This document shows, in pieces, positions 346-59,039 of a stretch of 64,000 nucleotides of DNA. The notes under the pieces were generated by a model. It did no database searches. It was not told where the DNA came from and saw nothing but the letters and a program-made list of their open reading frames with translations. This DNA comes from Psammoneis japonica (lineage: Eukaryota): the NCBI GenBank assembly GCA_008632985.1, contig QPGO01000024.1, positions 186,001-250,000 on the forward strand. The letters are read 5' to 3'. How positions within the stretch are numbered: position 1 is the stretch's first letter; each line of letters opens with the position of its first letter. Made by a program: the position numbers and the translations under genes.

Positions 346-827
346 CAGCTCTACTCTGGGGGCCCTAGAGCTAGCCACCAGAGATAAGCACCAAATCAAA
401 ATTCTACTGCCACTTTCCACTTTGGACTTCCGATTTCCGATTCACGACGGACGACGGAAAAATTGAACTTTCGCGCGCAGCGCGAACTTTCGGCGAAAGT
501 TGCCCCCTTTTGGAGCGCGAAGCGCTCCAACTTTCGGCTGAAAGTTGGGAAACGGAGGGGGCGCGCGGAGGAAAAAAAGTTCGTCCGTTGAATCTTGGCT
601 GTGAATCGTGAGAGTGCGTTAAGTCGTGCGTCAAGTCGTGCGTTGAGTCGTCTTGAAATTTGAAAAAAAATCAAAAATCAATCGAAACACGAAAGCTCAC
701 GCGATGAGCGATGGAAACATGTTACCGTCGCACGCGAATCCTCATACGGAAGGCCTTTTCTCCTACTGTACTGTGGAGGATACTGTAGAGAAGTTTCCTG
801 AATACCCAAAGTGCAGTGGATGGCAGA

Positions 828-22209: not shown

Positions 22210-22382
22210 ATGATAATGAGATTCAACAGGAGCGTTGTTGCGTTCTTTTCAGCGGCTGCTCTTACCGCGTCTTTCCCTGATGTAGCTGCTAATTCTGGCG
22301 GAGCGCCAATGGCTACAACACCGGGCTACAATTATTACCAGCAGCACCAGCAGTGGAACGGAAACGATCAACAGCCGCAGCC

Positions 22383-22416
<34 letters not shown>

Positions 22417-24351
22417 AACGGAGAATATGGCTACCAACAGGCAGCGCCGGAGAAACTAGAGACGTCGTTACCTGATGATTCAAAGGCCCCCCCCGCTCTA
22501 CCAGAAGGGTGGACAGAGTATTTCGATGCCGGGAGTGGACAACCGTACTACTACAATGCCGCTGATGGCACGACAACATGGGATCGCCCTGTTGTTGAGT
22601 CCTCCGATACTGCTTTTGAGCAAAAGGAGGAGAGCATGCCGTCGTCGCCGGACGGACCAGAAACACCTCCTACCGAAGAGCAGGAAACAGATGCGAAGCC
22701 ACAGGAACACGAAAAACCTGCGATGGTTGCCGATGAGATGCCCCCCAACGAAAACAGATTGGCTGAGAGCGCATCCTATGAGGGTCATGGAGAAAAGCAG
22801 CGACAATTGCAGCAGCCTGAAGTACTCGAGGAAATCCCGATTGATCAGGTACCGCACGATGCATTTGACGGCAGACAGCAGCAGCGGCAAGAGCAGCCTT
22901 GGGGCATCTCACGACAGAATGCAAACCAGCACGAGCCTTGGGGAGTAAAACGTCAAGAACTGCCGCATGACCCAAGATGGGGGGCTCCTAAACAGGACAG
23001 CGACACCTCTTCTCCGCCGATTCAACAAAGGGGTCCCCCAGGGGATAGGCAGCAGTGGCCTTCTGCCGCAGATCCTTCCCAAAAGGAAAAGGAAGAGGGC
23101 GTCAGCAAGCCTTGGGCAGGAGCTGGCGAGGGTGCTCCAGAAGGAGTAGAATCTCGTCCTACATGGGGGGAAGAGAAGTCAGCTCACGCAAACCCGCACT
23201 CTGTCTTTCAACAGCGGCAGCAATCGCAGGAGGTACCACAAGCGGACGCGCAGCCTGCACTTTGGCAATTACCTCGTCAGCAAGGTATAGACCAGGAGCA
23301 GAAGCCGCCACGACAACCGCAGCTGCAGCAGCCGCAGCAGCAACAAGATCCACAACAGCAACAGCAGCAACAACTTTCTCATCAGAGATCACCGGAGCTT
23401 CAGCAACGACGTCCACTGACGCAACAACATCATGTGCAGCAAATGCCACAGGAACAGCAAAAACATTACCCTCACTTTCAACAACAGCAACCAGGGTATG
23501 GCCAATATGGTACTCCGCCGGGACAGTCTGGGCAGTATGGACAATATGGCGGACCACCTCCTGGACAGTATGGCCATCCAGGCCAATATGGAGGCCCGCC
23601 CGGATACGGTCAACAGCATATGCAGCAGAATCAGTTGGTTGACCAGTCAAAAGCTGGTAGTGGTGCCGTAAAGGAGGCTCTCGGGAATGCTTGGAGTGGC
23701 ATTCTGGGGTTTCGAAACAAGACAAAGGAGGTGGTAGGGCAGGCGAAGGATACAGTTGTATCAAGCGCGGCAGCTGCTGGCCAGTCCATCAGCACGAAAA
23801 GTACCGGTACGATGCAACGAAAGCCATGACGTAACGGTGGTTGCGATATCGTATCTCAACTTGTTTGCTCTTCCGCGCTTAATCAAACAGGTATTTTTGA
23901 ACAGGCAAAATCGACTCTCGGATCTGTCTTTGAGTCCAACCAAGAGAAGAAGCCTCCTTATTCTTTGTCAGGGCACCAGTCTGGGCCACCTGGATATGGC
24001 CGCCCTCCACCTCAACAAGGCTATCCGCCACAACAGTATGGTGGTTATCCTCCTGGCTATGGTCCGCCACAAGCTCGAGGCGATCCTTCATATCCACACA
24101 TGCCGACGCATGCGCAGAGTCAGCCACCCATGCAGAGTCAGTATGGTGGAGCTCCTCAAGGATATCCACCCCAGATGTATCCCCCGAGACAGCAGTCTCA
24201 ACCTGGGGGACCGCCTAACCCTTCTCAGCCCGATACTCAGACAGCGCAACCAGGACATCCCCATCAGCCTCAACAGGTTCCTCCCCAAAACCAGAGGCAG
24301 AACCAGGAGAGAGATGCTTGGCAGCACCCCGGATTATCTGGAGACTACTAG
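22210..24351 (+). CDS. Gln/Pro-rich WW-domain protein with signal-peptide-like N-terminus (exons 22210-23806, 23891-24351)
   Basis: LPEGWTEYFDAGSGQPYYYNAADGTTTWDRP WW domain; polyQ; GQY and PPGY repeats; GT-AG intron. Confidence 0.85.
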
Positions 24352-26726
24352 CTGTGTCGCTAAGGCACGCGCATTCTTTTCTGAAGCCGGAGCAACCCCG
24401 CAAAAGGACGTCACTTTTTCTTAACGAATGCTATTTACAAACATATCTTCAGGTCTCATCGATAGATCATGCTAAGAAAATACCTCATTCTCATCTTACA
24501 TCGTTGTCAAAGTGACACTTATATCGGCTTAGAACTTGTCCTCCCACTGGAAGTCGTTGCTTTTCTTCCTTGATTCCGACCCGCCACATAAGCGCACTCG
24601 TGTCACGCGTGAAGGGCAGGTGGGAATGCCAAGCCACTAGCTCTGTCTCACGCCGGCTGTGTTCCTCAAATGTCTGTGATGCACCAGTGGCACAGAACTC
24701 ATGACACACTTTAGCTGGGCCTTCCTGGGAAAGACTGGGAACTCATTCATCCTACCATCATGGAGTTCTGAGGGTCATCATCACTTTCAGCCGACTGACT
24801 GAGTGGACAAACAACTTGATGGGTCCACAAAGAACTCTGCCACTTGACAAGAGGCATCTCAAATGTTGTGATTCATTGTGTGGTGAGGCAACCAAAAAGA
24901 TTCAGTGGGCTGTGAACTCACCAAATCTCAGAGTTTGGTGTGCAGTTGATGCATCATTCTTGTGCAACAGAAAATCACAGAATGCAACTGCTTGGCAAGA
25001 GGCATGTCACATGATGCTGTGGTGGCTCCACATGACAAGGCAACCAACTGAAAAGATTTAGAGGTGAGTTGCAGAGTTCAACATGGTGTTTGTTGCTTTC
25101 ACCTTGACCAGACCACTTTCCTGAAATTAAGAAAAAGAAACAAATGACTGTGGCAGGAGCCCCTCCAGTTTTCAAACTGCTGTTCTTTTCATTGGCAAAA
25201 ACCAGAGCAAGGTTGCAGCAGCAGTTGTGACCAGACATCATGTGCTGCAAAGGTGAGAGATGGAACCTCACTTTAGATCAGCACGCAGCAACACGCAACA
25301 TCAAAAACAACTCATCACACACCTGCTTGCACAAGCTCCACCCACTTGCTCTGCTGGCATGCACAAATGTGGTTGCCAGAGATCAAGACAGCCAGAACAA
25401 GCTGATGGGGGATGTGCAAAAGTTGAAACAAGAGAAATGTCTGTGGACAATGTCAAGACAAGTGCCTGGCATTGGATTGAGTCACCTCTTAAAACAAGAA
25501 GTGGAAGAAGAGCACCCTCTTGACAACTTCACTCAGTGCTTGTGCAGCTGATCAAAAGCAAAAGGCTGTGCAGAGCACACAGCACAAGGCACAAGGCATA
25601 AAAGCAATGCCTTGCTGCATGTTTGCCAGGCATCTGCTGCTGCTGATGCCAACTTTGGCTGGCCTTGACATCCTCCTGTGTGCGTTCTTGCCCACAGGAT
25701 GATCGGCTGGTCTGTGCTGGGGGAGTGTGCAAGCCACCAGCCTCCTGTCAGAGAGTTGTGCCATGTGCTTGGTGTCAACACAGTGGTGCCAAAAAGATGA
25801 TTTTTGCCTTCTGCGTAAACTCCCCTGCCCTCCTCACAAAAAACTCTGCCACACAAACTCTGCTGTGCCACTCACAAACTCCAGCCTGCCCTCTGTTCAC
25901 ACACTCTCCCTCAACCCACTCTCTCACACCACACAACCTCCACAAACTTTGGCGCTGTTCCCTTACAAGCTCCACCCACTTGCCCCAAACTCTGCAAGCT
26001 CATGAGCTTTGGCTGCCTGCAGACTCTGTCACTTGCTGGCTCTGTCCTCTCACAAGCTTTGCCTGTTCACAAACTCTCAGCCTGCTCACAAGCTCCTCAA
26101 CCACCAAACTGGTGCTTGCAAACATTCCACCCATTGACAGTGCTGAATGAACACCCTGTTCACGCACAAGCAACTTGTCAAGAGTGGCACTTTAGTCCTC
26201 AAAAAATGCCACACTGCCAAGAGGCCATGGCTCATGACCACAAATGGCCACCCAACAGCATCGTGCTTGCAGCTCGTGCAGCCACACCAGACAAATGGTG
26301 TTGCTCAAGATTTTCTCTGTTGTGCCACAGAACATGTGCCGTGGCGCAGCCCAAATGCAGAACATTTTGGGTGGAAAGTGGTTGGAATGGTTCAGGCAAT
26401 GGTGGGCAAGTGCTTCCAAAGAGCAAGAGATCAACAACACAACACAACTGCACTGCTGGCATCCCCTCCACCCATGGGCCAGTTCTGCCCATCTGCCCCC
26501 AGCCACAAGAGGACGTTGTGGTGGTGTGGCATGTTGGTCAACCTGCTCCCCAAGAAGAGCCAGGAGCAGGCCACAACCATGGCAGATGCGGGCAGATGCT
26601 CTTCTGGGGCCCTGGTGTCTGCAGCTGTGGGGCCCTGGTGGCTAGCTCCACCCTGGAGCGAGAGAAAGAGAGAGAGAGAGAGAGGTCACCCAGCCGCTCC
26701 ATCCATCGCGCACCAAAGGTGCATTG
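22949..26726 (+). repeat. Segmental duplication, copy 1 (about 3.78 kb)
   Basis: Colinear with 31083-34862 (offset about 8134). Confidence 0.97.
24660..26580. repeat. Old TpA-depleted repeat relic inside the duplication (unclassified)
   Basis: Very few TA or CG in either copy. Confidence 0.6.
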
Positions 26727-27226
26727 GGGTGTCCTGGCACGCGCGCTGGTTGGTTGGTTGGTTGGCTTGTGGAGGGAATCCTGAGGGAATTCTGCCAAAT
26801 TTGTCTCGCTCGCGGGAGGATGCCTCGCACAGTGTGGTTCGCAACTCAGACTTTTCAGTCTTACGGACCAGCCGCAGCCGCTGCATGAAAACACACCAAA
26901 AAAACCAACCGCAGGGGCTGCAGTAAAAATCAGTGCTCACATTCAGTCCCGGATTTCTCGTTTTTGTCGCTCCAGAAAATGACAAAAAAAAGAGCTGCGA
27001 GGTTCTGCCCAGCACCAACTGCAACATTTGTTGTGCACACGTGGCCCACTTCGACCTGCTTGACGAATGTAAATGTTCAAAATGCACATTTGTATGAGAG
27101 AAAGCGAACTGTGTCAGATTTGTCGTAGTGCCACCAACAAGCTGCCGGCACATGACGATCTGCCACCAAACTCACAAAATTTCTGGAAGGCGCAACGGTG
27201 GTGACTGAGGCCCGTTTTAATCAACC

Positions 27227-28980
27227 ATGAGTCGTCAAGCCACTGTCGGCGTCACTGCCAGGCGTCGAGCCACCGTTGCCCCGCCAGGTGGAGGAGACGA
27301 AGAACGATCCGTGCACCAACATCTCGCAAGAAGCAACTCGTCTTCTTCTGTCAGCAGCATCGAGAGTTTGCCAAACATGCCAAGAGTGTTTAACTCACCT
27401 CCACCATTCACTGACACACATTGGTCCGACGTTGACACGGATGACGAGTCTGAAGAAGGGCACAATCCTCCACCCGTTGGGGATCCGGGTGTTTGCAGTG
27501 GCAAAGACAGAGAGGGCGACAACGAATCCCTCAAATGTCGTTGCCCAATCGCTGGGCGATTTGCCACCAGAAAGCCCGTCAAATGGCTGGGTCAAGTGCA
27601 CGAAGAGCAACAGCTTGAGCAGCATTTTCAGGATTGTCGTGTTCGAAGGGGGTTGGGTGATTTTGCAGTGAATCTGCTCACTGGTGGACAAGTGCTTTCT
27701 TTGATCCATCCTGTCTGCCATGACGACACGGATCTGTGGAAAAACCAAGCCAAGATTGCCAAAAAAGGTCACATGTTGCACAAGTGTCGTCGTGAAAAAT
27801 GGCAACGCGAACAAACCGAGGGAGCACGTTTGTAAGCGGCGGATGCGGCTTCAACTGTGACGCCGACAGATGGCGCATCCGACACTGCTGCTGCCGACAC
27901 CGCTGCTGCCGTCACTCCTCATCGCAACGGCACTCAAGGCATGCCCCGACTTGGTGATTTTCTTGCAAATGATGCAGGAAAGCGGGCTTTGACTGCCATG
28001 CTTAGAGAAGCTAAGATGGCCGGCTGGGACCAATCGCTGGGGTGCGGTCGATGCACCGCTTGGCTTGCCGTCCGTCATCCTGTTTGGATCAACCGAGCAC
28101 AACGTGGCATTTTGTCTCAGTGAGCAATGTGTTGAATGCATTGTCATTTCCGTTGTGTCATTGCCATGCAATGTCTAATGTGTTGTTTGTTTTCATTTTT
28201 GTGTGATGCAGATTTCACCCATTCAGCATCGCTCTCTTGCGTCGCAAGCTGAGTGCTGCTGAAGCTCGAATTAAGGCGGATTTCTGCCAACAGGGAGCGC
28301 ATGGCACCGATGAAAGTGGCGCTGTGGGGGAAAGTGAGTTTCCCCAACATGCAACACTTTTTTGTGAGCATTTCTCCTGGGTGGAGAATCGTCCTGACGG
28401 GCCAGCAGCAACAAGAGCGCGTCAGGATGCCAGGCGCCATGTTGAAAGGAGTGCCATTGGTGCCATGGTGCCTCTTGGTGGGAGTGATCAGACTCTCTGT
28501 ACCGAGCACTCTCATTCCAATCTTGGTCCAAACCAAGATGTTGCAAGCAGGAGCATGTCATCGGATCAAACCGAGGGGACGGAAAACATTGTCACTGCCA
28601 CCACTCCTGTGGATGCTGGCACTGGTGCTGCGAGAGCGAGTGGTCAGCGACGTGTCATTCATCGTGAGAGTGTCCCATTGCCCACGGGCATTGAGAATGC
28701 CATGATGGCATCTACACAAAATCTTCAGATGGGATTTGTGGAACTGGCAAGAGCGATTTCAAGCCCCCGTCAGCCACCTCCTCGCTCCATTTCTGATGTC
28801 CGCACCGAATTCACTCGGACGCGTCGTGCTCTGAGGGAGGCAGAAGACGACAATGATGAAAGGTCTGTTGGCTTTCTCAACAGGATGTTGGACTCCCTTG
28901 ACAGGGAAATGACACAGTCTTTTTCTGGATCTGTTGGCAGTGAGCGCGGTGAAAATGCCGATGCCGAAAATGTGGAGCAG
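27227..28980 (+). pseudogene. Probable Harbinger accessory ORF2, TpA-mutated
   Basis: Coding-like frames 27227-27835 and 28237-28980 essentially without Tyr; position opposite the transposase fits the two-gene Harbinger layout. Confidence 0.5.
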
Positions 28981-29469
28981 TTTCGTTCGAGTCGCATGTG
29001 GTCGATTCGCTGCCATTGTGTGCGCTGGTTCTGGAGGATTGAATCCTCCAGCATTCGTCATGCTGTGGATTACATTGCAAATTCGAAACAACCGAGCATT
29101 AGCTTGTTGTCGTGTGCACTGATTCTGGAGGATTGGATCCTCCAAGATTCATCATGCTGCAGATGGTTGAGCGCACCGTTGTTTGCAATGGCAAAATGGT
29201 GACCATGGAACCCTTTCAAAAAATGTTGACACATCTGTTTAGCACATTCCTGCAGCAGACACACAAAACCTTGTCAGTGTTGTTCGCATCACACTTGACG
29301 ACACGACATGAACGACATGATGTGATGCCGGCACAATGTTGCGCAATTCCATGTGACACGACAGGATGCGTGCCGGCACAATGCAGTGCAACTCAATTCC
29401 TGCTAGACACACAAAAACACATCAGTGTTGTTTGTGTCATGCTTTGTGATGTGATGACAGCTGAAGAAA

Positions 29470-31005
29470 AAGCAAAGCCATTTTAAAAAAGAAAACTGTG
29501 GAAATTGGCATGTGTTGCCAAGATCCACCTGGGGCGCCGCCTCCAGGATCTCATCAAGCGGCAAGTGCGACTCGATGGAGGGAGGCAGCAACTCGAACAT
29601 GCTGCACACCGACGAGCCATTAAAACATGTGCAGCAGTTCATCAAGAAAAAAGACACAATGCACATTTTTAGTTTCTTGGGACCCGAGTTGTACAGCCAA
29701 AGCATGTCCCTGTCAAGAAAGACACGAAACAAATTGATGCGATTCGCGAGCAAGTGCTCGATGGACTCATGCATCGCCGCCATGCGGTGATTCAGATGTT
29801 CTTCTTCAGCCGTTGCATGGTTGAATTGTCCAAGCATTGTAGGGAGCAACTGAAAGATTGCGGCTGCACAAAGTGCAGGGAAATGGCCTCCCATGCGAGG
29901 CAGAATCCTCTCAAGGCACTCGCTCAAACCACTCAAATTAAGCATGCCATTGTCATTGACACTCAGTGTGGCCCCAAAGACACTTCCCATCATCCCATTG
30001 GAAAAAAGAACAACTTGAAACTTTAGTCCATGGGCTCAAAAGTGTCTGCTGTAGAATGCATGCTGGATGTCCACAATAATGTCAAACACTCGCCTTGCCT
30101 CGTCACCTGGTCTGGGAGTCTCCAATCCGCAGTCATCAATGAAGCCGAACATGCGCTGGTGCTCAAATTCCAAATGTGCAAAAACAAACTCACCCCTTCT
30201 TAAGCCATTGTCATGTTGAACTTCCTCTCGAGTTGCTCTAGAAACCAACCGGCGCCAGATTGCATGCCTGAATTCGTCAATGTGTGGCACCCACGCATCC
30301 ACAGATTTTCCAGATGTCTTGTGGTAGAACGTGTTGTGCAAGTGATCAATGAAACAGTCCATCGCCCAAGACCACCTTCTGGGGTCACCACCAAATCGTT
30401 CTGGTGTCATTCGAGTCCACTTGTCCCCCCGTCATCATCTTGCTCAGACAAACAACAAAAATCTCTTCACTCGTAAGAACACAGCAATTCGCAACCCTGA
30501 CGCGACCTTCTGGAAAGCGAAGATGGCGATGCAACAGCCTTAGCTGAGCCTTTGTAAGCCGAGTCCATTCACAGCAATTGGTCTCAGACAACGAATCGAT
30601 TGTCCGGTTTCTCACTGGTGTTCTTTCAGGAGGCGGTCAGTTGCGTGTTGAGCTCGTCACGCATTCACGCCATCCTGCAAGGCAGCTTGTGGTCAGTCCA
30701 AAATAGAGCTGAAGCACCGCAAACACAAAGAAAAGAACTTGGTCAATGACATCATTGCTTGAAAGGATGTCATCGCCACCCCAGAAAACCAAAGCAATGA
30801 TGGCTGCAATTCGGGCAATCAATTCCTGCGTCGTCGTAAAGTTGAAATAAAAGAGACGTCTCAACAGTAGAACGGTGAGGACATCACGTTGAGACAGGGC
30901 ATCATGCCGATGCCTCCAGTTCGTGCGCCGATGCACATTGCGATGAATGATGTGATCGTCAGCATCTTCTCGGTGTCGACGCCGAGAGCGCCTTTGCCGA
31001 GGCAT
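29470..31005 (-). pseudogene. PIF/Harbinger DDE transposase pseudogene
   Basis: MFGFIDDC, QHAFYS, HGLKFQVVLFPNGMMGSVFG, NDNGMLNLSGL, LNHRMAAMHESIEH; frameshifts and stops. Confidence 0.8.
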
Positions 31006-31082
31006 GCGGCACGTAAGAGGTGACGAAAACAACACCGTTGCGAATGTTTGATGTGATTCATTTTTTTTTGTGACCATCGAGG

Positions 31083-32485
31083 AACGTCAAGAACTGCCGC
31101 ATGACCCAAGATGGGGGGCTCCCAAACAGGACAAAGACACCTCTTCACCGCCGATTCAACAAAGGGGTCCCCCAGGGGACAGGCAGCAGTGGCCTTCTGC
31201 CGCAGATCCTTCCCAAAAGGAAAAGGAAGAGGGCGTCAGCAAGCCTTGGGCAGGAGCTGGCGAGGGTGCTCCAGAAGGAGCAGAATCTCGTCCTGCATGG
31301 GGGGAAGAGAAGTCAGCTCACACAAACCCGCACTCTGTCTTTCAACAGCGGCAGCAATCGCAGGAGGTGCCACAAGCGGACGCGCAGCCTGCACTTTGGC
31401 AATTGCCTCGTCAGCAAGGTGTAGACCAGGAGCAGAAGCCGCCACGACAACCGCAGCTGCAGCAGCTGCAGCAGCAACAAGATCCACAACAGCAATGGCA
31501 GCAACAACTTTCTCATCAGAGATCACCGGAGCTTCAGCAACGACGTCCACTGACGCAACAACATCATGTGCAGCAAATGCCACAGGAACAGCAAAAACAT
31601 TGCCCTCACTTTCAACAACAGCAACCAGGGTGTGGCCAATGTGGCACTTTGCCGGGACAGTCTGGGCAGCATGGACAACATGGCGGACCACCTCCTGGAC
31701 AGCATGGCCATCCAGGCCAACATGGAGGCCCGCCCGGATGCGGCCAACAGCATGTGCAGCAGAATCAGTTGGTTGACCAGTCAAAAGCTGGCAGTGGTGC
31801 CGTAAAGGAGGCTCTTGGGAATGCTTGGAGTGGCATTCTGGGGTTTCGAAACAAGACAAAGGAGGTGGCAGGGCAGGCGAAGGATGCAGTTGTGTCAAGC
31901 ATGGCAGCTGCTGGCCAGTCCATCAGCACAAAAAGCACCGGTGCGATGCAACGAAAGCCATGACGTAACGGTGGTTGCGATGTCGTATCTCAACTTGTTT
32001 GCTCTTCCGCGCTTGGTCAAACAGGTGTTTTTGAACAGGCAAAATCGACTCTCGGATCTGTCTTTGAGTCCAACCAAGAGAAGAAGCCTCCTCATTCTTT
32101 GTCAGGGCACCAGTCTGGGCCACCTGGACATGGCCGCCCTCCACCTCAACAAGGCTGTCCGCCACAACAGCATGGTGGTCATCCTCCTGGCTGTGGTCAG
32201 CCACAAGCTCGAGGCAGTCCTTCACATCCACACATGCCGACGCATGCACAGAGTCAGCCACCCATGCAGAGTCAGCATGGTGGAGCTCTTCAAGGACATC
32301 CACCCCAGATGTGTCCCCTGAGACAGCAGTCTCAACCTGGGGGACCGCCTGACCCTTCTCAGCCCGACACTCAGACAGCACAACCAGGACATCCCCATCA
32401 GCCTCAACAGGTTCCTCCCCAAAACCAGAGGCAGAACCAGGAGAGAGATGCTTGGCAGCACCCCGGATCATCTGGAGACTGCTGG
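31083..32485 (+). pseudogene. 5'-truncated, hypermutated copy of the WW-domain gene
   Basis: Lacks the start and WW domain; Tyr codons changed to His/Cys; stop TAG changed to TGG; intron retained. Confidence 0.95.
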
Positions 32486-34862
32486 CTGTGTCGCCAAGGC
32501 ATGCGCATTCTTTTCTAAAGCCAGAGCAACCCCGCAAAAGGACGTCACTTTTTCTTGACGAATGCCATTTGCAAACATGTCTTCAGGTCTCATCGACAGA
32601 TCATGCCAAGAAAATGCCTCATTCTCATCTTACATTGTTGTCAAAGTGACACTCATGTCGGCTTAGAACTTGTCCTCCCACTGGAAGTCGTTGCTTTTCT
32701 TCCTTGATTCCGACCCGCCACACAAGCGCACTCGTGTCACGCGTGAAGGGCAGGTGGGAATGCCAAGCCACTGGCTCTGTCTCACGCCGGCTGTGTTCCT
32801 CAAATGTCTGTGATGCACCAGTGGCACAGAACTCATGACACACTTTAGCTGGGCCTTGCTGGGAAAGACTGGGAACTCATTCATCCTGCCATCATGGAGT
32901 TCTGAGGGTCATCATCACTTTCAGCCGACTGACTGAGTGGACAAACAACTTGATGGGTCCACAAAGAACTCCGCCACTTGACAAGAGGCATCTCAAATGT
33001 TGTGATTCATTGTGTGGTGAGGCAACCAAAAAGATTCAGTGGGCTGTGAACTCACCAAATCTCAGAGTTTGGTGTGCAGTTGATGCATCATTCTTGTGCA
33101 ACAGAAAATCACAGAATGCAACTGCTTGGCAAGAGGCATGTGTCACATGATGCTGTGGTGGCTCCACATGACAAGGCAACCAACTGAAAAGATTCAGAGG
33201 TGAGTTGCAGAGTTCAACATGGTGTTTGTTGCTTTCACCTTGACCAGACCACTTTCCTGAAATTAAGAAAAAGAAACAAATGACTGTGGCAGGAGCCCCT
33301 CTAGTTTTCAAACTGCTGTTCTTTTCATTGGCAAAAACCAGAGCAAGGTTGCAGCAGCAGTTGTGACCAGACATCATGTGCTGCAAAGGTGAGAGATGGA
33401 ACCTCACTTTAGATCAGCACGCAGCAACACGCAACATCAAAAACAACTCATCACACACCTGCTTGCACAAGCTCCAACCACTTGCTCTTCTGGCATGCAC
33501 AAACGTGGTTGCCAGAGATTGAGACAGCCAGAACAAGCTGATGGGATGTGCAAAAGTTGAAACAAGAGAAATGTCTGTGGACAATGTCAAGACAAGTGCC
33601 TGGCATTGGATTGAGTCACCTCTTAAAACAAGAAGTGGAAGAAGAGCACCCTCTTGACAACTTCACTCAGTGCTTGTGCAGCTGATCAAAAGCAAAAGGC
33701 TGTGCAGAGCACACAGCACAAGGCACAAGGCACAAAAGCAATGCCTTGCTGCATGTTTGCCAGGCATCTGCTGCTGCTGATGCCAACTTTGGCTGGCCTT
33801 GACATCCTCCTGTGTGCGTTCTTGCCCACAGGATGATCGGCTGGTCTGTGCTGGGGGAGTGTGCAAGCCACCAGCCTCCTGTCAGAGAGTTGTGCCATGT
33901 GCTTGGTGTCAACACAGTGGTGCCAAAAAGATGATTCTTGCCTTTTGCGTAAACCCCCCTGCCCTCCTCACAAAAAACTCTGCCACACAAACTCTGCTGT
34001 GCCACTCACAAACTCCAGCCTGCCCTCTGTTCACACACTCTCCCTCAACCCACTCTCTCACACCACACAACCTCCACAAACTTTGGCGCTGTTCCCTTGC
34101 AAGCTCCACCCACTTGCCCCAAACTCTGCAAGCTCATGAGCTTTGGCTGCCTGCAGACTCTGTTACTTGCTGGCTCTGTCCTCTCACAAGCTTTGCCTGT
34201 TCACAAACTCTCAGCCTGTTCACAAGCTCCTCAACCACCAAACTGGTGCTTGCAAACATTCCACCCATTGGCAGTGCTGAATGAACACCCTGTTAACGCA
34301 CGAGCAACTTGTCAAGAGTGGCACTTTAGTCCTCAAAAAATGCCACACTGCCAAGAGGCCATGGCTCATGACCACAAACAGCCACCCAACAGCATCGCGC
34401 TTGCAGCTCGTGCAGCCACACCAGCCAAATGGTGTTGCTCGAGATTTTCTCTGTTGTGCCACAGAACATGTGCCGTGGCGCAGCCCAAATGCAGAACATT
34501 TTGGGTGGAAAGTGGTTGGAATGGTTCAGGCAATGGTGGGCAAGTGCTTCCAAAGAGCAAGAGATCAACAACACAACACAACTGCACTGCTGGCATCCCC
34601 TCCACCCATGGGCCAGTTCTGCCCATCTGCCCCCAGCCACAAGAGGATGTTGTGGTGGTGTGGCATGTCGGTCAACCTGCTCCCCAAGAAGAGCCAGGAG
34701 CAGGCCACAACCATGGCAGATGCGGGCAGATGCTCTTCTAGGGCCCTGGTGTCTGCAGCTGTGGGGCCCTGGTGGCTACCGGCAGCTCTACCCTGGAGCG
34801 AGAGAAAGAGAGAGAGAGAGGTCACCCAGCCGCTCCATCCATCGCGCACCAACGGTGTATTG
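31083..34862 (+). repeat. Segmental duplication, copy 2 (TpA-hypermutated)
   Basis: Colinear with 22949-26726. Confidence 0.97.
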
Positions 34863-36619: not shown

Positions 36620-38550
36620 ATTTCAAGCCTGTTCATGATAACAAGACCTTTGCTGTTGCGATGTCACACCACACAGTCACGTCACCTTGAAGGAGTGGTG
36701 AATCGTCAAAAAGTTTCGTCAACTCCCTTTGTCACGCATCTTGCAGCGGGCGGCGACAGCTCGACAGCGGAAGCCTCGAGCACAGCCAACATGTGAGATG
36801 CCATGCAGCATGATGTGCGCACATCGTTTTGAAGCACCACAGAGCTGACATGGTCTCTGATTGTTCTCTCATTGCAACCCCCCATGCTTCATGCAAGCTT
36901 CTAAGGTGGTGGCCCTGTTGATGATCGATTCCATCAACAGCTCCTCTGGCCTGTGAAGAGTTCTCAATGTACATGGCTCCTCAAAAAATTTTCAGCAATC
37001 TGAATGTCTAATGACCATCTGCCTCAAAAGCAAAAGAGGTTCTTCCTTGCAACAATGTGGAAGCATTGTGGCAGAAACAAATGATCCAAGGTGTGCTGTC
37101 ATCATTGTGGTTGCTGTTGCAGAGTCCTCCATTTCTCTGCAGGTCATGTCTCTCATGAACTTTTTGTTCTTTGTCACAAGCAGGCAACAAACATTGCAGC
37201 ATGATCATGTGTGGCTGACATCACCAAAAGGAAATTGATGAAGAAGGGAAGGCAGCGAAAGGCTGCCCATGTGTTTTGTCTCTCCCAACATCAACCAAAA
37301 ACAAGCTGGAGTCAATCCACACCACCATTCATCAAGAGGCTGCTGCCAAACCCACCTGAGCTCCATTTTGCTCTGCTGGAGCAGTTGCTACAATCAAGGG
37401 AAAGCAACATGTGTTTTTGACATCTTTGACAGCCAGCCATTCTTCTGGGTGCAAACCACAATTTTGATGCAAAGATTGCAGCGGCACCTCTGCACACCTG
37501 AACTTGCTGCTCACAAATTGCTCTGGGAAAAGTGCACAATTGCAATTTGTGGCATTCCAGTTGCTGCTGCCCCAGTGGTGGCTTGCACTTTCTTTCTGCC
37601 CTTTTGCACCATTGACCCACACACCCTGCTGTTTTTTCTTTCTTTTTGTGACCATGCTGCCCCAAGCTTCTTTCACTGTCTTGCTCCCCAAAGCTGTTGT
37701 GCTGACTCTGTGCCAATGAAGCTGTGTGTGTCTGATCAACCAAGAAGCAGTTCTGCCAAGGGATGAGGAACAATGTGAGTGCTGAATTGAGCTCTGGCTG
37801 AAAGTTGCCATGGCCCAGCATGGCTCTGCTTCCTGCTGGCAGCCCCAAGAAAGCTTCCTCATTTGCCATTGAAGATTGTGCCTCTTGTTGCTCTCACTGG
37901 CAGCCAGCAACAACCAGCAGAGGAGATGAGTGCCAGCACCTCAGCAAAGAGCCATAAAAACAATGAGAGGAGTGCGCCCCCGCTGGCCTCAGGAGAGCGC
38001 AGATCACAAACAAAAGAGCTCTTCTTTTCACTGAGGTGAAAGCAAGCTTTGCTGGGGTTGTGGCTGCTCTCTTTGTGCAAAAACAAGCCACCTCAGAATG
38101 TGGACAATGCCCAGCAGAGCTTTGCTGCTCTTGGTCGCAGCGATTTTGTTGCTGGGGGCAAGGGCAGCAACAAAGCCCTCTTGAGAGCTGTTGAGCAGCA
38201 GGAGGCTGTCACATCAGGTGGTGGGGAGATGCTGTCAGAAGCACAGTGAGGAGACAGGAACAGATGACTTTTTTGCCTCTTTCAGCAAGCGCCCTCCTTT
38301 GTGGGGCTTTTCTCTTTCTCTCTTGCTTCCCACGCTGGTGGGCTGCAAAAGCAAAGAAGATTTCATTTTTTGCACAGCCCACCAGGAGGGCCACAGCAAA
38401 TGCTGGAAACTCAGTCCACATGCACCACTTGTCCTGGTGATTGCACACATGAGCAATGGAAATGTGTGGTGGTGATGTTGTGTGTCCATCCCAACTTCTT
38501 GTTCTCACGAAAGTCAAAAATAAACAGGACCGGACAGACAGATGCAGTGC
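36620..38550. repeat. TpA/CpG-depleted degenerate repeat relic (unclassified)
   Basis: Almost no TA over about 1.9 kb; overlapping Tyr-free pseudo-ORFs. Confidence 0.65.
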
Positions 38551-46927: not shown

Positions 46928-47764
46928 GTGCTCTTGTTCTTGTTAACACATAACCCGACATGCATTCTTCACAAGAGTCCCGTTTCTCGCTCAATCACTT
47001 CTCCCTTGGAATGGATCGCTTCCTCCACAAATTCGGGTCCAACTAGAGTCCTTCAAAACACAGAACAGAGTCGATCGCTGCCACCGGAGCCAGCAGCCGC
47101 CAATCCCAATGTAGACTAGTAGCAGCTTTCACTCGTCGTCATGTCGTCCCAGAAATCACGCAAATGAGGTTCTTTCTGTGAATCGCACCGTTCTTGCCAC
47201 TGCCCGTCTTGACTGAGCTCGGGACAAAACTCGAGCATTTATTTCCTTCGACAACGTCTTACTCACAGCATCTCTGGTGCTTCTCTGTGGGCTCTCTTCA
47301 ATGGGTTTTAAGTGGCATGCATCACGCAGCGCTACGCGTGGTGTGGCGTGCGTAACATGGAGGTGGCGTGAGGGCGAGCGGTGGGGTCTGACACCATGGT
47401 CACCATGGCATCTTTACCATAGCAGGCCTCCAGTCTACAGTACCGGCAAGCGGTCGATAGATCGGAGCATTCTTCTTAAATAAAAATATCGCAAGAAATC
47501 TTGAACGGAGAATCTGAGCGTTTTGATTGGCTCTGATTTATAAATTTTGGCTCTGAGTTAAAATTATTTTAACTCAAGCAAAGCGGGCAGGCGCGCTCCG
47601 GATGAGCGTACAGACCATCACCGCGGAGACAACTACCGGGTATACTAACTACTGTAGTCTACGGTACTGTACAGCACCGCCCGTAGCTCTCTACCGGTGC
47701 TCTTCACAGCAGTAGAGGAGGGCCCTCTACCGTGGTAAGAAGTGTAGAGATAGCCTAACACACA

Positions 47765-50700
47765 TGCCGGTGCACGCACGTGTGCGACAAACCATGGATG
47801 TGCGCCAAACAATGCTGTGCAGGGCCCCACCAGCAGGAAGAATCATTGCGGCCCTCATGGCAGTGAAAGTGGACATTGTGTGGTCAATGCAGTCATGCGA
47901 ACAAGGGGTGGTTGTCGAGCGCAGTTTTCGCGGGCTGTGCGAGTGAGGTCCGAATCGATTCTGGCGCCGTTGTCAGCGTGTTGCCAGGTTTTTGTTGTCG
48001 TCTCGGCATGGCATCGATGGTCTCTGTGTGCAGTGTGTCAGCAATCATTCCATGTGAGTGGTCTGGCCCAAGTGGGGTCACTCAGCATTTGCAAAGGGAT
48101 GGGCCAGCTCCATCCTCCCATTGAGGACATCTTGAGCTGATCTGGGATGAAGGGACATGTGATCCCCTGAGGCAACGGTGAGTTGCCCGTGCCAAAGTGA
48201 TGCTCATTCTCGCGTTGACACAGCCGCATGCCTCTGAACATGGCTTTTGCCATTTCTCAGCTGGTTTTGCAGAGATTCTGCGCAGCACTGCTTTGGTTTC
48301 CTTGCCAAGCAGTCCGTCGCATGATGCGACGAAGGGAGTGAAGTGGCGGCATTGCTCAAGGCAGGGCTTGAGGTGCTTGCACTTTTTCTCTCGTTCGTGT
48401 TGTTCCAGAACTTCTTCCGGTGTGTTGTGGACAGGTGTGACTTCACATCCGTGTCCGGAGTGCGAACATCCATGACGGTGTCTGCCCTTTTGTCCCAAAA
48501 TCCTTTGGACAAAAGATCTCCGTGATCGCCATCCTTGGACATGTTGGAGTTTGTGTTGCCTTGGGAGTTGTTGGAGGAGCCTGGGCTTCCTGAGATGTGA
48601 CCAATGAGGTTGATGAGGGGTTCGTCGCGCATGCAGGAGGGCTTGAAGGCCGCTCCAATTGGGCCGCCGAGGTCATCACGCACATCATCATGTCGTGAGA
48701 TGACCAGGCCGCCCTTTTTGCACTGCAGGGCATGGGCGGTGGAGAATTTGCAGGCACATCCATTGCAGTGCTCCGGGAGGTTGGGGGGAGTGCAGCCATG
48801 TTGTAGATGGAGCGCATCATGGAATTCTGGACAAGAGAGTTCCGCGCCATTTATGATCGATGGGTGCACCGACAGCCATGCTCCAGCACTGGTGCTGCAC
48901 TTGACAGCTCTGGCTTTGAGGTTGGTTGGAGTTGGGAGGATTGTCTTGAGTTTCTCCTCGTGCATCTTGGCTTTCCCATTGGCTGCTTCTTCTTTCACTT
49001 TGCGCATGGTGTCCTTGTGGACTGCTGAAGAGAAATCTGAGCGGCCGCGGAGTGAGTCTGTCACGTGAGAGCATGTGAGAGCACTTGCTTCACAGTTTTG
49101 GGATGCAGACTCCATTGGAGGAGGGATGGACAGTCCTGCAAATTTGATTGGGAGGGCAGATGGGGCCAGTCTTGGATCGTCGTCAGCCAAGGTCTCACCA
49201 ATTGGTGCTGGAAGGAATTGGTGCTGGATCGCGCTCTCTGCTTCCGCAAAGGATTCGCTGCAGTCCTTTGCTGCACATTGGACACATTGCCACTGGTGTT
49301 GCAGGGACTTTTGAAGACCGGTGCAGGTGGTCTGCGGGTGATGAATCGCGACATTTGCGAGTCCTTGGATGACCAAGGTCCACGACTCGGCTTTCTTTGC
49401 CAGCCATCGGTCGTGTGCATCCGTCTCTCTGACGAAGCCTCCAAGGCAGTGGCCACCTGAGCAGACAGTGAAGCCGAGGTCTCCAAAGTGCGCCCTGGCG
49501 CGTCCCAGGTTGTGTTCTGGGACCACCAGGATGTTCTTGTCATTGGCGGTGGGGCAGCAGCCATGCTTGGGTCCTTCAACTTGAAGAGTCAAGAAAAATT
49601 CCCGAAGGACATTGAATTTCCCAGCTGCAGTGGAGTCGTCAGCGTGCCATGGCGTGAAAGCATCTTGATGGATGTCACTCAGCTTGCGGACTGGTGGGAG
49701 AAGGCCCAATCCATGGGCTGCCATGCCAAGTGGGTTGCCCTGCATGACACCTTCCTTGCTGAATGGTGCAAAGGCGGTGCCAAAGTGTCCGCAGACAATT
49801 GGGATGCACCAATGCTTGCAGCTGTTGAAAGTGAACCTGGCGCCAGATGGCCAGAGGTGTCCAACGTTGTGTGACATTGGGACTCTGTTCTCCTTGTTGA
49901 AGCCGTTGGAGGCGTCGACGAAGAGGAAGCTGCAGTCATCCTCGAACTTGTGCTGTTCCCAGAGGAGATTCATTATGCAGAAATTGTGTGGAAGAGCACC
50001 AGAAACAATCAATTGTCAGTTTGTCCACCCTTCCGTGTTTGAATGTCAACTTCTCGGGAAATCAATTCAAATGTCATCTGACCAAAGGCGTCGCTCTTCA
50101 CCATGTAAATCAAAACACCTTTGGTCAGACAACATTTCAATTGAGTTCCCAAAAAGTTGCCAGCTCCAATCACCCTCCTGCATGACATTGTGTGTGTTTC
50201 CACATGATTCTTTGGCATTTTTCCTCATGCAAAATGCCAATTGTGACTCTTGCGACATTTTCGAATGATTCCCACTGTTGTCAAAAAACCGCCGGAGCTG
50301 ATGGCGACATTGACATGGCAAACAAGGTGTCCAAACATTTGTTGTTTCAAGTCCCACTGCAAGAGCAGGCTGATTGTGCTGCTGCCTTTCATTTGGGGTT
50401 GCAAAGGTGCTGTCACTGAACGGCAGTGAGCCGAGTTTTGTGCTGACACACTGCGCCATTGCACCCGTTCGTGACATGCCATGTTGTGCAGACAATGCAT
50501 CAACTCACCATTTGTTGGATTTGCTGCACCCACTGCATCAAAGTCTGAGTTTGTAAAAAAGGAAAGCAAACTCAAAATCAAAATGGTGCTGTCAATGCAT
50601 CCACGGCTCAGCGCCGCTTGTTGTCTCACTCAACTTTCTCGCCGCTGCAGTCAGCTCTTGTTGTCTTTCCCAGCATGAGCACATCAACAAATCCAGCATC

Positions 50701-51620
50701 ATCATGAAATTGTCAAACCCATTTGATCAGCGCTGCTGACCAGATGAATGTTTTTGAAGACTTTCACAAAGCAACTGCAGTGCACTCAGCCAAGTGCTCT
50801 TGAGCGGTGGAGAAAGTTCTTGGGCGGATGAGAGAGCAAAAATGAAGAATCAAGTTGGCGTGCGGTTCAAGAAAAAAGCATCCAAACAATGCTGACAAAA
50901 TTGTTCTGATGACATCATTTTACAGAGCAACAAACATCAGTGAATGGAGCGCTTCTCCCTGGCTTGCACACACTCTGGATTGATCACAAAGAGGATGAGG
51001 GCACAAGAAACATCAAATCTGAAAATGGAAAAAGTGTGTGGCGTGCAAATGAGCACTCATGGATTGCTCGCCCATTTGCAGGAGCAAGAAAGAGGTCAAA
51101 TGCAGTTGTCACTAGGTCAAAGACAAATTGGAGAGCAGAGCGTTGCCACAAAGTCAGCTTGTGATGATTCTGTCATCCAGCCTCGGTGTCGAGAACGACG
51201 GGTCAATTTCGCTTCATGTCGCACAGCGAGTCACATGTCTTGAACCCTGCATGACCCACTCAACTCAACATTTTTGGTGGAACTGTGTGGCCAGACTTTG
51301 ACCCCTGCTGCTGGAGCCCCAAAATGCACAAAATGCGAGCATTGTCAGTCTCATGCTCTTCAAACTGATGTCTCGCAAGAGTGTGCAAAATGACGGGCAC
51401 GCATTGTTTGTGGCATCTGGCACTTCAAAATTGAACTGACTTTTCATGGAGCACCTCTGTTGCACAGGCAAGTGCGAGAGTCAATTTGCAGTGATCGGTT
51501 GCACAACATACACCCCATTCCATTCATGCTGCACTGCAGATCTGCCACCGCGACGACGCGACGGTTGTTTTTTGAGGTTGGCCGTGGAGCGGAGACCCAA
51601 TGTCTCTCGCGCGAGCAAAT
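47765..51620 (-). mobile_element. Degenerate non-LTR retrotransposon with RT, zinc knuckle and restriction-like endonuclease (CRE-like), plus TpA-depleted flank
   Basis: VDASNGFN, EGVMQGNPL, WHADD (YADD), HALQCKKGG...RHDDVRD, GDLL..GFW...DVR, HEREKK.KH, FTPFV.S.DGLLG. Confidence 0.88.
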
Positions 51621-55728: not shown

Positions 55729-56412
55729 ACTTCTGTCAATACCGGTGCGATTTGATGCGAGTATTGTTCACTTGTCAAAGCTGTCTATTCCGACTGATTT
55801 CTTTTCGGATTCCGATGGCTTTGCTATTTAGACAACTTGACAACCAAGAGACGCTACTTGTGGGTGCATTCGTTGTGTAATTGGTTTCAAAACCAGGAGG
55901 TTTGATGATGAAGAGCGAGGTTACTGTAGTGCTTTTGTGGGTTCGTTCGCAGCTTTCGGTTTCGTACTCCTCCTTTGACAACAGGCAGCAACGTTGAAAA
56001 AATCGTCACTGCTTTGTGCAACCACTATTCTCGTCCCTTAAATGAAATTGCACGATGACGTCAACTCAATTTGAAATGTTAAATACATGTAATGACGTAC
56101 TTAGACGTGTCTCTGACCTCAATGTTTGCGAGGCGGGTGGGTGTGCCTGCTTCCTCACGAGTTTCACAGATGATAGGGAGGTCTTCTGTTGTGATGTCAT
56201 GGATACTTAAATAAAAGCGAAAGTGACAGGCAACAACGCACTTCTCATCTTTCTGTCGTCAGCCGCTCAGTCAGCAACTGTCACTCGTTTTCCGACAACG
56301 TTAAATGAAAGAAACGTGCGTTAAATGAACGTCATTATTATTTGAATGGCAAGTTGAAGTGAGCTTGCGGCGTCGCGCACAGCCATGTCCGTCCGTGCGT
56401 GATCGAACGGTG

Positions 56413-56453
<41 letters not shown>

Positions 56454-56454
56454 G
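56413..56454 (+). repeat. (TGTC)10 microsatellite
   Basis: Read directly from the sequence. Confidence 0.95.
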
Positions 56455-56831
56455 CAACGACAAGGGCATGTTTGCCTTGGCCCGCCCCCATGTTTGCAAG
56501 CAGCAGAATGCACGGAGAAAATGCACATGCTGACAGAGATCCCAGTCAGGGACAAAGGAATTCACAGCACATTGCAAACAGCAGCAAGCATGAATGCTGT
56601 GTTTTTGTGTTGGATTTGTGGTGCCTGCTGGCGACAGAGCATGCATCCTGCCAAGGACAGGGTGACTTTGCATGTCCCAACACAGCCATTTTCACTCACA
56701 TGGGTGCTGGCTGGTGCCATGTTGGCTGGTGTGGTGTTGGGTTGCAGATCCAGCACTGTGCACAGACTGCTGCAGCAGGGCAGGGGGGGGGGCAGCTCAC
56801 ATGCCAGATTCTGCTTGTGCTGCAAGGGCAC

Positions 56832-59031: not shown

Positions 59032-59039
59032 GAAGGAAG

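Follow-up and report, generated by a model that had tools for sequence, protein, structure and literature searches.

TpA-to-TpG/CpA hypermutation in islands of degraded mobile DNA of the diatom Psammoneis japonica, probably directed by position

Introduction

What removes nearly every TpA dinucleotide from one copy of a duplicated gene fragment and leaves the other copy almost intact? The question is raised by a 64,000-nt stretch of the Psammoneis japonica genome (assembly GCA_008632985.1, contig QPGO01000024.1, positions 186,001-250,000 of the forward strand; hereafter, the window), in which an initial annotation had inferred a repeat-targeted mutator of DNA that it took to be undescribed. 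In ascomycetes, RIP mutates both duplicates by C:G>T:A transitions, with CpA as the main target, whereby TpA arises and the DNA turns AT-rich; it acts premeiotically and depends on a RID/DIM-2 type methyltransferase. APOBECs deaminate C on single-stranded DNA, in strand-coordinated clusters. We know of no established natural defense in which chromosomal A:T pairs are rewritten.

The label "undescribed" no longer holds. A preprint dated 2026-04-14 (Mettrop et al., bioRxiv 10.64898/2026.01.13.699255) reports A:T>G:C hypermutation, confined to TpA, of NCLDV and virophage DNA integrated in the genome of the chlorarachniophyte Bigelowiella natans, a rhizarian. According to its main text, 230 of 231 mutations found by Illumina sequencing in two viral regions of mutation-accumulation lines were A>G or T>C, invariably at TpA, and the viral-region rate was ~1000 times background. 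The targeted region is single-copy and transcriptionally silent, with activity that is sporadic from line to line; genomic clusters depleted of TpA and enriched in CpA and TpG carry an excess of DDE endonuclease and RT domains, and an ADAT2-like candidate is proposed (10.64898/2026.01.13.699255). That text makes no mention of diatoms or stramenopiles. A full-text literature search turned up TpA>TG/CA hypermutation in neither group, the preprint being the sole relevant paper, and the accessible text of an article on diatom DNMTs (PMC9998398) contains nothing on TpA hypermutation.

Results

One copy of a duplication has lost its TpA dinucleotides

Self-BLAST of the window returned a single duplicate pair, 22949-26726 versus 31083-34862 (3,786 columns, 96.7% identity), which is ~2 kb longer than the span aligned in the initial annotation (Table 1). 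Copies A and B were compared by global alignment, with the left part extended to 24760 in copy A numbering. Background divergence is alike in the left (0.66%) and right (0.71%) parts, indicating one duplication event followed by the purge of a single copy. The right parts show ordinary divergence (14 "other" substitutions in 1,965 bp plus small indels); A-right retains 8 TpA and 18 CpG in 1,955 dinucleotides. Over 22949-24640, the alignment reproduced the counts first reported, i.e., 59 TpA in copy A, with 53 altered in copy B (27 to TG, 26 to CA, none to CG), and the sequence examples originally quoted are present. Over the extended left part, 54 of 61 TpA are changed (28 TG, 26 CA, 0 CG); copy A lost at most one. 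The other left-part differences (14 CpG to TG/CA, 12 miscellaneous, and one site with TA in B and TG in A) bear out the earlier estimate of about 14 and about a dozen. TpA changes thus account for 54 of the 81 substitutions in B-left, the remainder being mostly CpG decay. B-left kept its intron, every Tyr codon became Cys or His, and the stop codon, TAG at 24349-24351 in the intact gene, became TGG.

Table 1. Positions of the genes, duplicate copies, and TpA-poor tracts in the window
Feature	Position	Strand	Remarks
TpA-free stretch at window start	1..352	.	0 TpA in first 300 bp; CA/TG o/e 1.8
Intact WW-domain gene	22210..24351	+	Pfam WW E 1.3e-12; supplies ancestral state for comparison
WW gene, exon 1	22210-23808	+	
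WW gene, intron	23809-23893	+	85 nt; inferred
WW gene, exon 2	23894-24351	+	
Copy A of 3.8-kb duplication	22949..26726	+	Self-BLAST and global alignment
A-left	22949 to ~24760	+	WW gene 3' half and 3' flank; TpA content normal, 61 TpA
A-right (X)	~24761-26726	+	Already poor in TpA and CpG
Tract 1	24760..34862	.	10.1 kb; X, spacer S, B-left, and X'
Degraded PIF/Harbinger-type DDE transposase	29406..30431	-	Spacer S, tract 1; ORFs 29406-30035 and 30039-30431 (the latter a probable part)
B-left	31083..32894	+	Hypermutated copy of WW gene 3' half; ~120 bp beyond the span first aligned
B-right (X')	32895..34862	+	Copy of A-right
Tract 2	36640..38520	.	1.9 kb; CpG nearly gone too; no Pfam match
Tract 3	47757..51508	.	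3.75 kb; retroelement
Reverse transcriptase ORF	48207..50015	-	603 codons, tract 3; 0 Tyr
Tract 4	56340..64000	.	At least 7.7 kb; continues past window end

The spectrum is that of a single A-to-G transition at 5'-TA on either strand of DNA

When A>G changes in B-left were strand-collapsed and sorted by preceding base, 54 of the 122 adenines preceded by T were hit, versus 4 of 721 in the other contexts (1/202 after A, 1/287 after C, and 2/232 after G). The enrichment at TpA persists upon this normalization for context (Fisher odds ratio, 142; p = 6.8e-46), and the TpA rate is ~315 times background per target base. Independent hits on both strands would have produced 26.7 CG outcomes; none was observed. 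A single hit abolishes TpA on both strands, and CG therefore never arises. The 28 TG and 26 CA outcomes are interleaved without strand runs (z = -0.54), the intron is kept, and no break separates the sequence from its flanks; the change thus took place at the DNA level and hit both strands equally.

CpG was lost as well. All 14 CpG differences in the left part read CG in A and TG/CA in B, with none in reverse and no such loss in A-left. Like the TpA changes, methyl-CpG decay yields TG/CA in the same tracts (14/81 substitutions in B-left), but it cannot touch TpA and runs ~10 times slower per dinucleotide here (0.22 versus 2.16 for TpA). It is a second, slower process in the silenced copy and leaves the TpA loss unaccounted for. 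The base 3' of the adenine also matters: TAY was hit at 41 of 79 sites in B-left and TAR at 13 of 43 (p = 0.02). Consistently, the base following surviving TpA is A in 45% of cases inside the TpA-poor tracts versus 19.5% outside, TAA/TTA being the longest survivors, and ATAT is absent among the 101 TpA that survive in tracts (chi-square p = 1e-19).

As judged from three independent cases, the WW orthologues and two transposon proteins, TA is the ancestral state. WW orthologues in pennate diatoms share the Tyr-rich repeats of copy A, with Tyr at positions that are Cys or His in B, and have the same C-terminal end as copy A; copy B has no stop. Cys or His occupies 6 of 7 conserved Tyr columns in a reverse transcriptase ORF of tract 3 and 4 of 4 in a DDE transposase of tract 1. 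On ancestral TA, on strand-equal change of DNA, on a single hit destroying the substrate on both strands, and on the failure of RIP, 5mC decay, or an ADAR retro-copy to explain the pattern, the initial annotation agrees with the spectrum, polarity, and strand data.

The purge extends over sharply bounded tracts with transposon relics

B-left belongs to one of four main tracts that together span 23,397 bp and contain 101 TpA (4.3 per kb versus 40.1 per kb outside). Observed/expected ratios inside versus outside are 0.07 versus 0.60 for TA, 1.69 versus 1.16 for CA, and 1.72 versus 1.15 for TG, and GC content is 0.507 versus 0.484. Borders are sharp, within tens of bases, and TpA-free runs reach 1,654 bp with clean transitions. 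Tract 1 (4-13 TpA per kb inside versus 30-67 outside) begins at the 3' end of the live WW gene and stops where copy B stops, TpA being dense again from 34913; at the edge of tract 3, 23 TpA in 47500-47756 give way to none over 1,048 bp. Tract 4 has TpA o/e of 0-0.16 and CpG o/e of 0.07-0.6, and looks like the oldest; a homologue search with its ORF 59956-60693 (minus strand) found none. No viral gene was seen in the tracts, no convincing inverted or direct repeats flank them, and self-BLAST detected no second copy of tract DNA in the 64-kb window apart from the A/B pair (including X/X'). An LTR model for X/X' was rejected because the duplication extends into host gene sequence.

Mobile-element genes were recognized in two of the four main tracts, with none in tracts 2 and 4. 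Pfam scanning of 102 of the 124 tract ORFs of at least 90 aa (the 22 omitted lie in copy B) gave no hit above cut-off (best E, 0.0095). The RT and DDE ORFs had no Pfam match even at E up to 10 and were identified via phmmer relatives alone. The RT, whose catalytic box reads HADD, has 24 relatives (best E, 3.8e-136), some with PF00078; its seven conserved Tyr columns read C (three), H (three), and S (one), and its 23 conserved Arg columns include three C and three H. ORF 29406-30035 has 312 relatives, with PF13359 (DDE_Tnp_4) in all six scanned, and reads C, C, C, and H at its four conserved Tyr columns. The neighboring ORF 30039-30431 probably belongs to the same transposase, judging from its translation. 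TpA o/e is 0.30-0.95 at 40 metagenome loci encoding RT relatives, none of them TpA-free, so the retroelement family is not intrinsically TpA-poor. No Tyr-free relative occurred among the 24 RT and 150 DDE proteins, two fragments of <100 aa having one Tyr each. A second diatom instance was not found in predicted-protein sets and short metagenome contigs, sources that are biased against degraded copies.

Position fits better than repetition as the targeting cue

The process is asymmetric between copies, unlike RIP. Since copy A is nearly intact, a RIP-like symmetric process is not at work, and the term "repeat-targeted" chosen in the initial annotation is unsupported; neither the single-copy state of the other tracts in the window nor that of the B. 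natans region speaks for it. What B-left and the other purged DNA share is their location in sharply bounded, CpG-losing islands of degraded transposons. Position inside a silenced mobile-DNA island fits better than repeat targeting, and silencing or chromatin may be the cue.

Discussion

Our preferred explanation, to which we give a probability of roughly 60%, is a location-directed process at the DNA level that turns TpA into TpG or CpA in silenced mobile-DNA islands, with adenine deamination as its likeliest chemistry. The WW fragment would have landed, by duplication, between the Harbinger-type relic and older purged sequence and would have been hit for that reason, while its twin in the live gene escaped. 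The agent may be an enzyme, probably an adenine deaminase: a TadA/ADAT2-like protein recruited to silenced chromatin would convert adenine in DNA to hypoxanthine, to be read as G at the next replication. A single transition at the adenine of a 5'-TA, whichever strand is struck, would abolish the motif on both strands, limiting each site to one hit. The natural substrate of TadA is UAC, and engineered adenine base editors are DNA-active forms of TadA; in TadA and ADAT2-ADAT3, as here, the target adenine follows U/T, and UAC comes close to the TAY preference. We know of no natural TadA/ADAT-family enzyme that purges chromosomal DNA. A DNA-active form of ADAT2 is reported from amphioxus (PMC10354150, as cited in the preprint). 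A scan for deaminase genes covered 53 ORFs, 19 long ORFs of the window (12 of them outside tracts) and 34 of 70 outside-tract ORFs, and detected none; the other 36 of the 70 overlapped or ran antisense to frames already scanned.

The diatom case matches an additional occurrence, in stramenopiles, of the very recently described TpA hypermutation. As far as the main text of the B. natans preprint goes, both systems change A>G/T>C at TpA to TpG/CpA (here, 54/122 versus 4/721), act in discrete regions orders of magnitude above background (here, ~315 times, with copy A spared), and leave genomic clusters depleted of TpA and enriched in CpA and TpG. The host is a rhizarian there and a diatom here. 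The viral regions of B. natans are mildly depleted (Rho TpA, 0.45), in contrast to the o/e of 0.07 of our transposon-bearing tracts; the recognizable targets in the window are RT and DDE_Tnp_4 relics in two tracts and a host-gene fragment with a spared twin, with no viral gene seen, and CpG decay accompanies the purge. The TAY preference is visible here, and the words "trinucleotide," "flanking," and "CpG" are absent from that main text.

RIP resembles the process described here in disabling mobile DNA by context-specific hypermutation, through transitions alone and with sharp edges, but here A:T becomes G:C, TpA is erased, GC is raised, and one copy is untouched. With polarity fixed by the orthologues, C>T at CpA amounts to 2/287, and TpA is destroyed rather than created; fungal RIP was discarded on these grounds. 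AID/APOBEC systems likewise edit invading DNA in a short sequence context, but here A:T pairs are the target, and hits on the two strands are intermixed, with no strand runs.

Thymine rather than adenine may be the modified base, an unlikely option. A TET/JBP-like oxygenase or other modifier would mark the T of TpA on either strand, for instance, as 5-hydroxymethyl- or 5-formyl-uracil, which would mispair with G and give T>C. Strand-symmetric data cannot separate A>G from T>C at 5'-TA, TpA is palindromic, as befits a mark written on duplex DNA, and the context preference is equally readable as RTA over TTA. The 5hmU of dinoflagellates and the base J of kinetoplastids lie mostly at a T that precedes A. 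However, 5hmU opposite A is weakly mutagenic, and neither such an enzyme nor a modified base was seen in the window. The sole experimental study of the signature, in B. natans, proposes adenine deamination, as a proposal, in its main text.

Quite unlikely is a homology trigger, by which duplicated DNA is mutated in the manner of RIP and the live copy escapes through transcription or protection. Our clearest case is indeed a duplicate, transposons are genome-wide repeats, and tract borders match the edges of inserted elements in sharpness; the tracts could also recur elsewhere in the genome, which would allow a trigger that spares transcribed copies. RIP mutates both partners, though, whereas of the 61 TpA here 54 are gone from B and no more than 1 from copy A. 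Spacer S, unique in the window, is purged just like B-left, tract DNA other than the A/B pair is single-copy within the 64 kb, and so is the hypermutable region of B. natans according to the preprint's main text.

An artefact of base calling or assembly is very improbable. TpA heavily modified on both strands and miscalled as TG in forward reads and as CA in reverse reads, with the consensus taking one of them, would likewise yield TG or CA, never CG, in near-equal shares and without runs. Such coin flips at ~65 former TpA should have produced ~32 CA-versus-TG discordances between A-right and B-right; the TG/CA states are common to both, with only 2 discordant. In B-left, an identical 11-base context had different outcomes (sites 23507 and 23587). 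The long TpA-free runs with clean transitions also argue against miscalling, the CpG decay of the tracts and the Arg>Cys/His changes of the RT resemble ordinary evolution, and the same signature is real in the B. natans Illumina data, by the preprint's account.

RNA editing with reverse flow, in which transcripts hyper-edited by ADAR/ADAT-type A-to-I conversion are copied back into DNA, has scarcely any probability left. A 5' U is preferred by ADAR (10.64898/2026.01.13.699255, main text) and ADAT enzymes alike, and one tract is a retroelement. An RNA intermediate accords neither with equally hit, interleaved strands nor with the retained intron, the unbroken run of B-left into B-right and S, the purge of a DNA transposon relic, and the 1/202 rate at AA. 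At the 3' side, ADAR prefers G, whereas the preference here is for a pyrimidine. The reverse polarity, with copy B ancestral and copy A gaining TpA by C>T at CpA/TpG in the classical, TpA-creating manner of RIP, is refuted by the Tyr residues and C-terminal end that the orthologues share with A, besides the intactness of the gene in A, the 14-to-0 direction of the CpG differences, and the near-absence of TpA common to the copies, although C>T would have struck only 54 of the 357 CA/TG sites of B.

Three further candidates were rejected. Pol-eta type WA>WG synthesis, listed in the initial annotation, needs hits at AA as well as TA and has to be dropped from its candidates (AA 1/202 versus TA 54/122); GC-biased gene conversion is at odds with 4 A>G changes in 721 outside TpA; and selection against UA in RNA would have a pseudogene, an intron, and a 3' flank as its target.

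The location-directed process gains interest from its host. Diatoms lie on a supergroup branch separate from that of B. natans, are ecologically dominant, and include genetically tractable species; a second occurrence, in a diatom, would mean that the process is more than a peculiarity of a single species. In the window, one 1.8-kb sequence occurs at two places, purged at the first and untouched at the second, and so provides its own natural control, which implies that targeting is neither intrinsic to the sequence nor symmetric between repeats. It also adds, beyond the main text of the preprint, the rate relative to CpG, the extended TAY preference, which constrains any candidate enzyme, and borders sharp to tens of bases. 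For annotation, TGA is the sole stop left in the tracts, so that long spurious ORFs arise, and transposon proteins of the tracts, stripped of Tyr, fall below Pfam detection.

More tentatively, and at somewhat less than even odds, we propose that diatoms possess a genome defense in which location, and neither sequence nor copy number, selects the target, with an adenine deaminase or another TpA-specific modifier acting at silenced islands. If so, it would erase every TpA of an island and thus TAA/TAG stops, Tyr codons, and TATA-like signals, would act ~10 times faster than methyl-CpG decay, and would leave the same sequence alone where it lies, 8 kb off, in an active gene. It would be a natural counterpart to engineered adenine base editors, and, with both a rhizarian and a stramenopile bearing its signature, would represent an old or widely spread SAR system.

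A gene duplicate altered at TpA in one half

Self-BLAST of the window unveiled a single strong duplicate pair, copies A and B, which align over 3786 columns with 96.7% identity. The initial annotation had therefore recognized a genuine duplication, but one that extends ~2 kb beyond the limits it assigned. Global alignment of the copies combined with a dinucleotide fate table revealed two halves very unlike each other. The 61 TpA sites in the left half of copy A (A-left; 22949-24760) appear in copy B as TG (28), CA (26), or unchanged (7), with no CG, and a single site shows the reverse, i.e., TA in B and TG in A. Within 22949-24640, the earlier counts were exactly reproduced, with 53 of 59 TpA sites altered (27 to TG and 26 to CA), and the underlying observation is confirmed. 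Substitutions at other positions of the left half were 14 CpG to TG/CA and 12 miscellaneous changes. Scoring by dinucleotide context on collapsed strands concentrated A>G changes at TpA: 54/122 adenines following T were changed, compared with 1/202 where the preceding base was A, 1/287 for C, and 2/232 for G (odds ratio, 142; P = 6.8e-46). Independent hits on the two strands would have generated 26.7 CG outcomes, whereas none was observed, indicating that one hit also abolishes the site on the opposite strand. TG and CA outcomes are intermixed along B-left, the counterpart of A-left (26 runs observed versus 28 expected; z = -0.54); hits thus fell on both strands and were unclustered.

Orthologues of the WW-domain protein, with named relatives in Nitzschia, Fistulifera, and Mayamaea, share with copy A both the Gly-Tyr-Gly-Gln-Tyr-Gly repeats ahead of the conserved block and a C-terminal tail with Tyr. 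These relatives assign the window to a diatom, as does the encoded bZIP + PAS protein, whose aureochrome-like architecture points to photosynthetic stramenopiles. Copy B carries Cys or His at every such Tyr, and its stop codon now reads TGG. The 14 CpG differences of the left half share one direction: in every case A has CG and B has TG/CA. TA is therefore the ancestral state, as originally proposed, and the reverse polarity (RIP-like C>T change in copy A) is refuted by these same two lines of evidence.

Extent and borders of the purged tracts

The hypermutated gene copy is the young edge of far larger purged DNA. The right half of the pair (24761-26726 in copy A) is CpG-poor and holds 8 and 11 TpA in the two copies over ~1955 positions each, with TG/CA states common to A-right and B-right. 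Sharply bounded TpA collapse delimits four main tracts, totaling 23,397 bp, which contain 4.3 TpA per kb (101 sites) compared with 40.1 outside. Observed/expected ratios inside and outside are 0.07 and 0.60 for TA, 0.41 and 0.97 for CG, 1.69 and 1.16 for CA, and 1.72 and 1.15 for TG; the remaining dinucleotides hardly shift. Borders are abrupt: at tract 3, 23 TpA within 47500-47756 are followed by 1048 bp with none. The partially depleted region upstream of the TruD gene may be a further tract, either small or purged only in part. A short distance downstream of its TpA-free opening stretch, this diatom nuclear window contains an ORF with a RusA domain, which defines a family of Holliday-junction resolvases characteristic of phages and bacteria.

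Features of the window (window coordinates)
Feature	Position	Strand	Remarks
Opening TpA-poor stretch	1-352		First ~350 bp
RusA ORF	789-1451	+	Endodeoxyribonuclease domain, Pfam E 3.8e-11
Partial depletion	8200-9500		TpA o/e 0.05-0.29, CA/TG 1.3-1.8, CpG near normal
bZIP + PAS protein	16535-17869	-	Aureochrome-like architecture
Copy A	22949-26726
Left half of copy A	22949-24760		WW-domain gene 3' half, intron, 3' flank
(GA)n microsatellite, copy A	26660-26700
Tract 1	24760-34862
PIF/Harbinger-type DDE transposase, C-terminal part	29406-30035	-	312 relatives; PF13359 in 6/6 scanned
Copy B	31083-34862
(GA)n microsatellite, copy B	34796-34830
Tract 2	36640-38520
Second direct repeat pair	45504-45853 / 46235-46572		Older; 76% identity over ~360 bp
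Tract 3	47757-51508
Reverse transcriptase (RT) frame	48207-50015	-	603 codons; 24 relatives, best E 3.8e-136, some with PF00078
Inverted repeat	50044-50162		48 nt, 83% complementary, 23-nt loop
Tract 4	56340 to window end

Transposon relics within the tracts

No Pfam family was found in the 102 tract ORFs scanned, yet two of them have relatives: an RT frame in tract 3 and a Harbinger-type DDE transposase in tract 1, both below Pfam detection even at E values up to 10. The RT frame lacks Tyr altogether, versus 1.4-3.0% in eight aligned relatives; the 7 conserved Tyr columns (Tyr in at least 6 of the 8 relatives) read Cys (3), His (3), or Ser (1). Its conserved Arg columns include Cys (3) and His (3), which reflect CpG decay. 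Similarly, the transposase ORF carries Cys or His at 4/4 conserved Tyr columns. Relics of both transposon classes have thus been purged, on both strands and with the same polarity. Tracts 2 and 4 yielded no recognizable mobile-element gene among the ORFs scanned. TpA o/e ranged from 0.30 to 0.95 at 40 metagenome loci encoding RT relatives, indicating that the retroelement family is not inherently TpA-poor. The inverted repeat lies immediately beyond the RT frame, still within the retroelement tract. The only stop codons left in the tracts are TGA, which accounts for the numerous ORFs of 100-330 aa that overlap one another in several reading frames; such spurious ORFs would mislead gene callers.

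Mechanism, rates, and sequence context

Retention of the intron, contiguity of the copy with its flanks, and the hits on a DNA transposon place the change at the DNA level, so the DNA-level TpA mutator of the initial annotation holds. An intact 5'-TA is strictly required, and a 3' pyrimidine is preferred: in B-left, the A of TAC/TAT was hit in 41/79 cases versus 13/43 for TAA/TAG (P = 0.02). Consistently, the base 3' of the TpA sites that survive in the tracts is A for 45% and T for 7%, compared with 19.5% and 27%, respectively, outside (P = 1e-19), with TTAA enriched 3.9-fold and ATAT absent (0/101). Loss per dinucleotide in B-left was 2.16 for TpA and 0.22 for CpG (ratio, ~10), and the TpA rate per target base is ~315 times the background per lineage. 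Adjacent double differences at 23362-23363, 25384-25385, and 26245-26246, where one copy reads CA and its partner TG, fit a short-lived TA, new or left over, that was resolved independently in each copy.

These features suggest an enzyme that would be recruited to silenced DNA, most likely a TadA/ADAT2-like adenine deaminase producing hypoxanthine, which would subsequently be read as G. A thymine modifier acting at TpA is rather unlikely, albeit the same data fit it, adenine and thymine routes being indistinguishable here. ADAR-type editing with reverse flow was rejected on strand and context counts, Pol-eta WA synthesis on the 1/202 hits at AA, and GC-biased gene conversion on the 4/721 A>G changes outside TpA.

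Targeting

Tract 1 extends from the live gene's 3' end to the end of copy B and comprises A-right (old purged DNA), a spacer with the Harbinger relic, B-left, and B-right. Background divergence is alike in both halves of the pair, i.e., 12/1811 (0.66%) and 14/1965 (0.71%), so that a single duplication event produced the pair. After this event, B-left lost 54 TpA and A-left at most 1, so that the 'repeat-targeted' character first attributed to the process is not upheld. RIP alters both members of a duplicated pair; with one partner spared here, the process is unlike RIP. What B-left and its neighbors have in common is their place inside the island and CpG decay absent from copy A, suggesting that the targeting cue would be the silenced state of the island rather than homology. 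A homology trigger with transcribed copies spared is improbable; self-BLAST detected no second copy of tract DNA within the window beyond the A/B pair, A-right and B-right included. The two copies bear near their ends a (GA)n microsatellite of differing length, ~30 bp beyond which the duplication ends. The older direct repeat pair sits in DNA of normal TpA content.

Comparison with Bigelowiella natans

The sole relevant report found by full-text literature searches is a preprint on the alga Bigelowiella natans (10.64898/2026.01.13.699255), which has overtaken the earlier view of the process as not described. According to its main text, 231/302 nuclear mutations in mutation-accumulation lines (Illumina) fell in two integrated viral regions, where 230/231 were A>G or T>C, those all at TpA, at ~6e-7 per site per generation versus 3.5e-10 elsewhere. 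Hypermutation was seen in only 11/15 lines, and the larger viral region is single-copy and transcriptionally silent. The genome holds 124 clusters depleted of TpA and enriched in CpA+TpG, and its TpA-depleted coding sequences show an excess of DDE endonuclease and RT domains. The authors proposed, without a test, adenine deamination by an ADAT2-like protein; the main text mentions neither diatoms, stramenopiles, CpG, nor trinucleotide context (10.64898/2026.01.13.699255).

That real signature in Illumina data also bears on whether our TG/CA calls are miscalls induced by base modification, which would likewise yield TG or CA but never CG. This is very improbable given, in addition, the states shared by A-right and B-right (2 discordances, whereas independent calling of some 65 former TpA sites should produce ~32), the different outcomes in B-left of one identical 11-base context (sites 23507 and 23587), TpA-free stretches of up to 1654 bp, and ordinary CpG decay in the same tracts. 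The diatom window presents this signature in a further SAR lineage and at a nearly complete stage, and joins a kind of process described only very recently, with the A/B pair as a natural control that constrains how targeting works.
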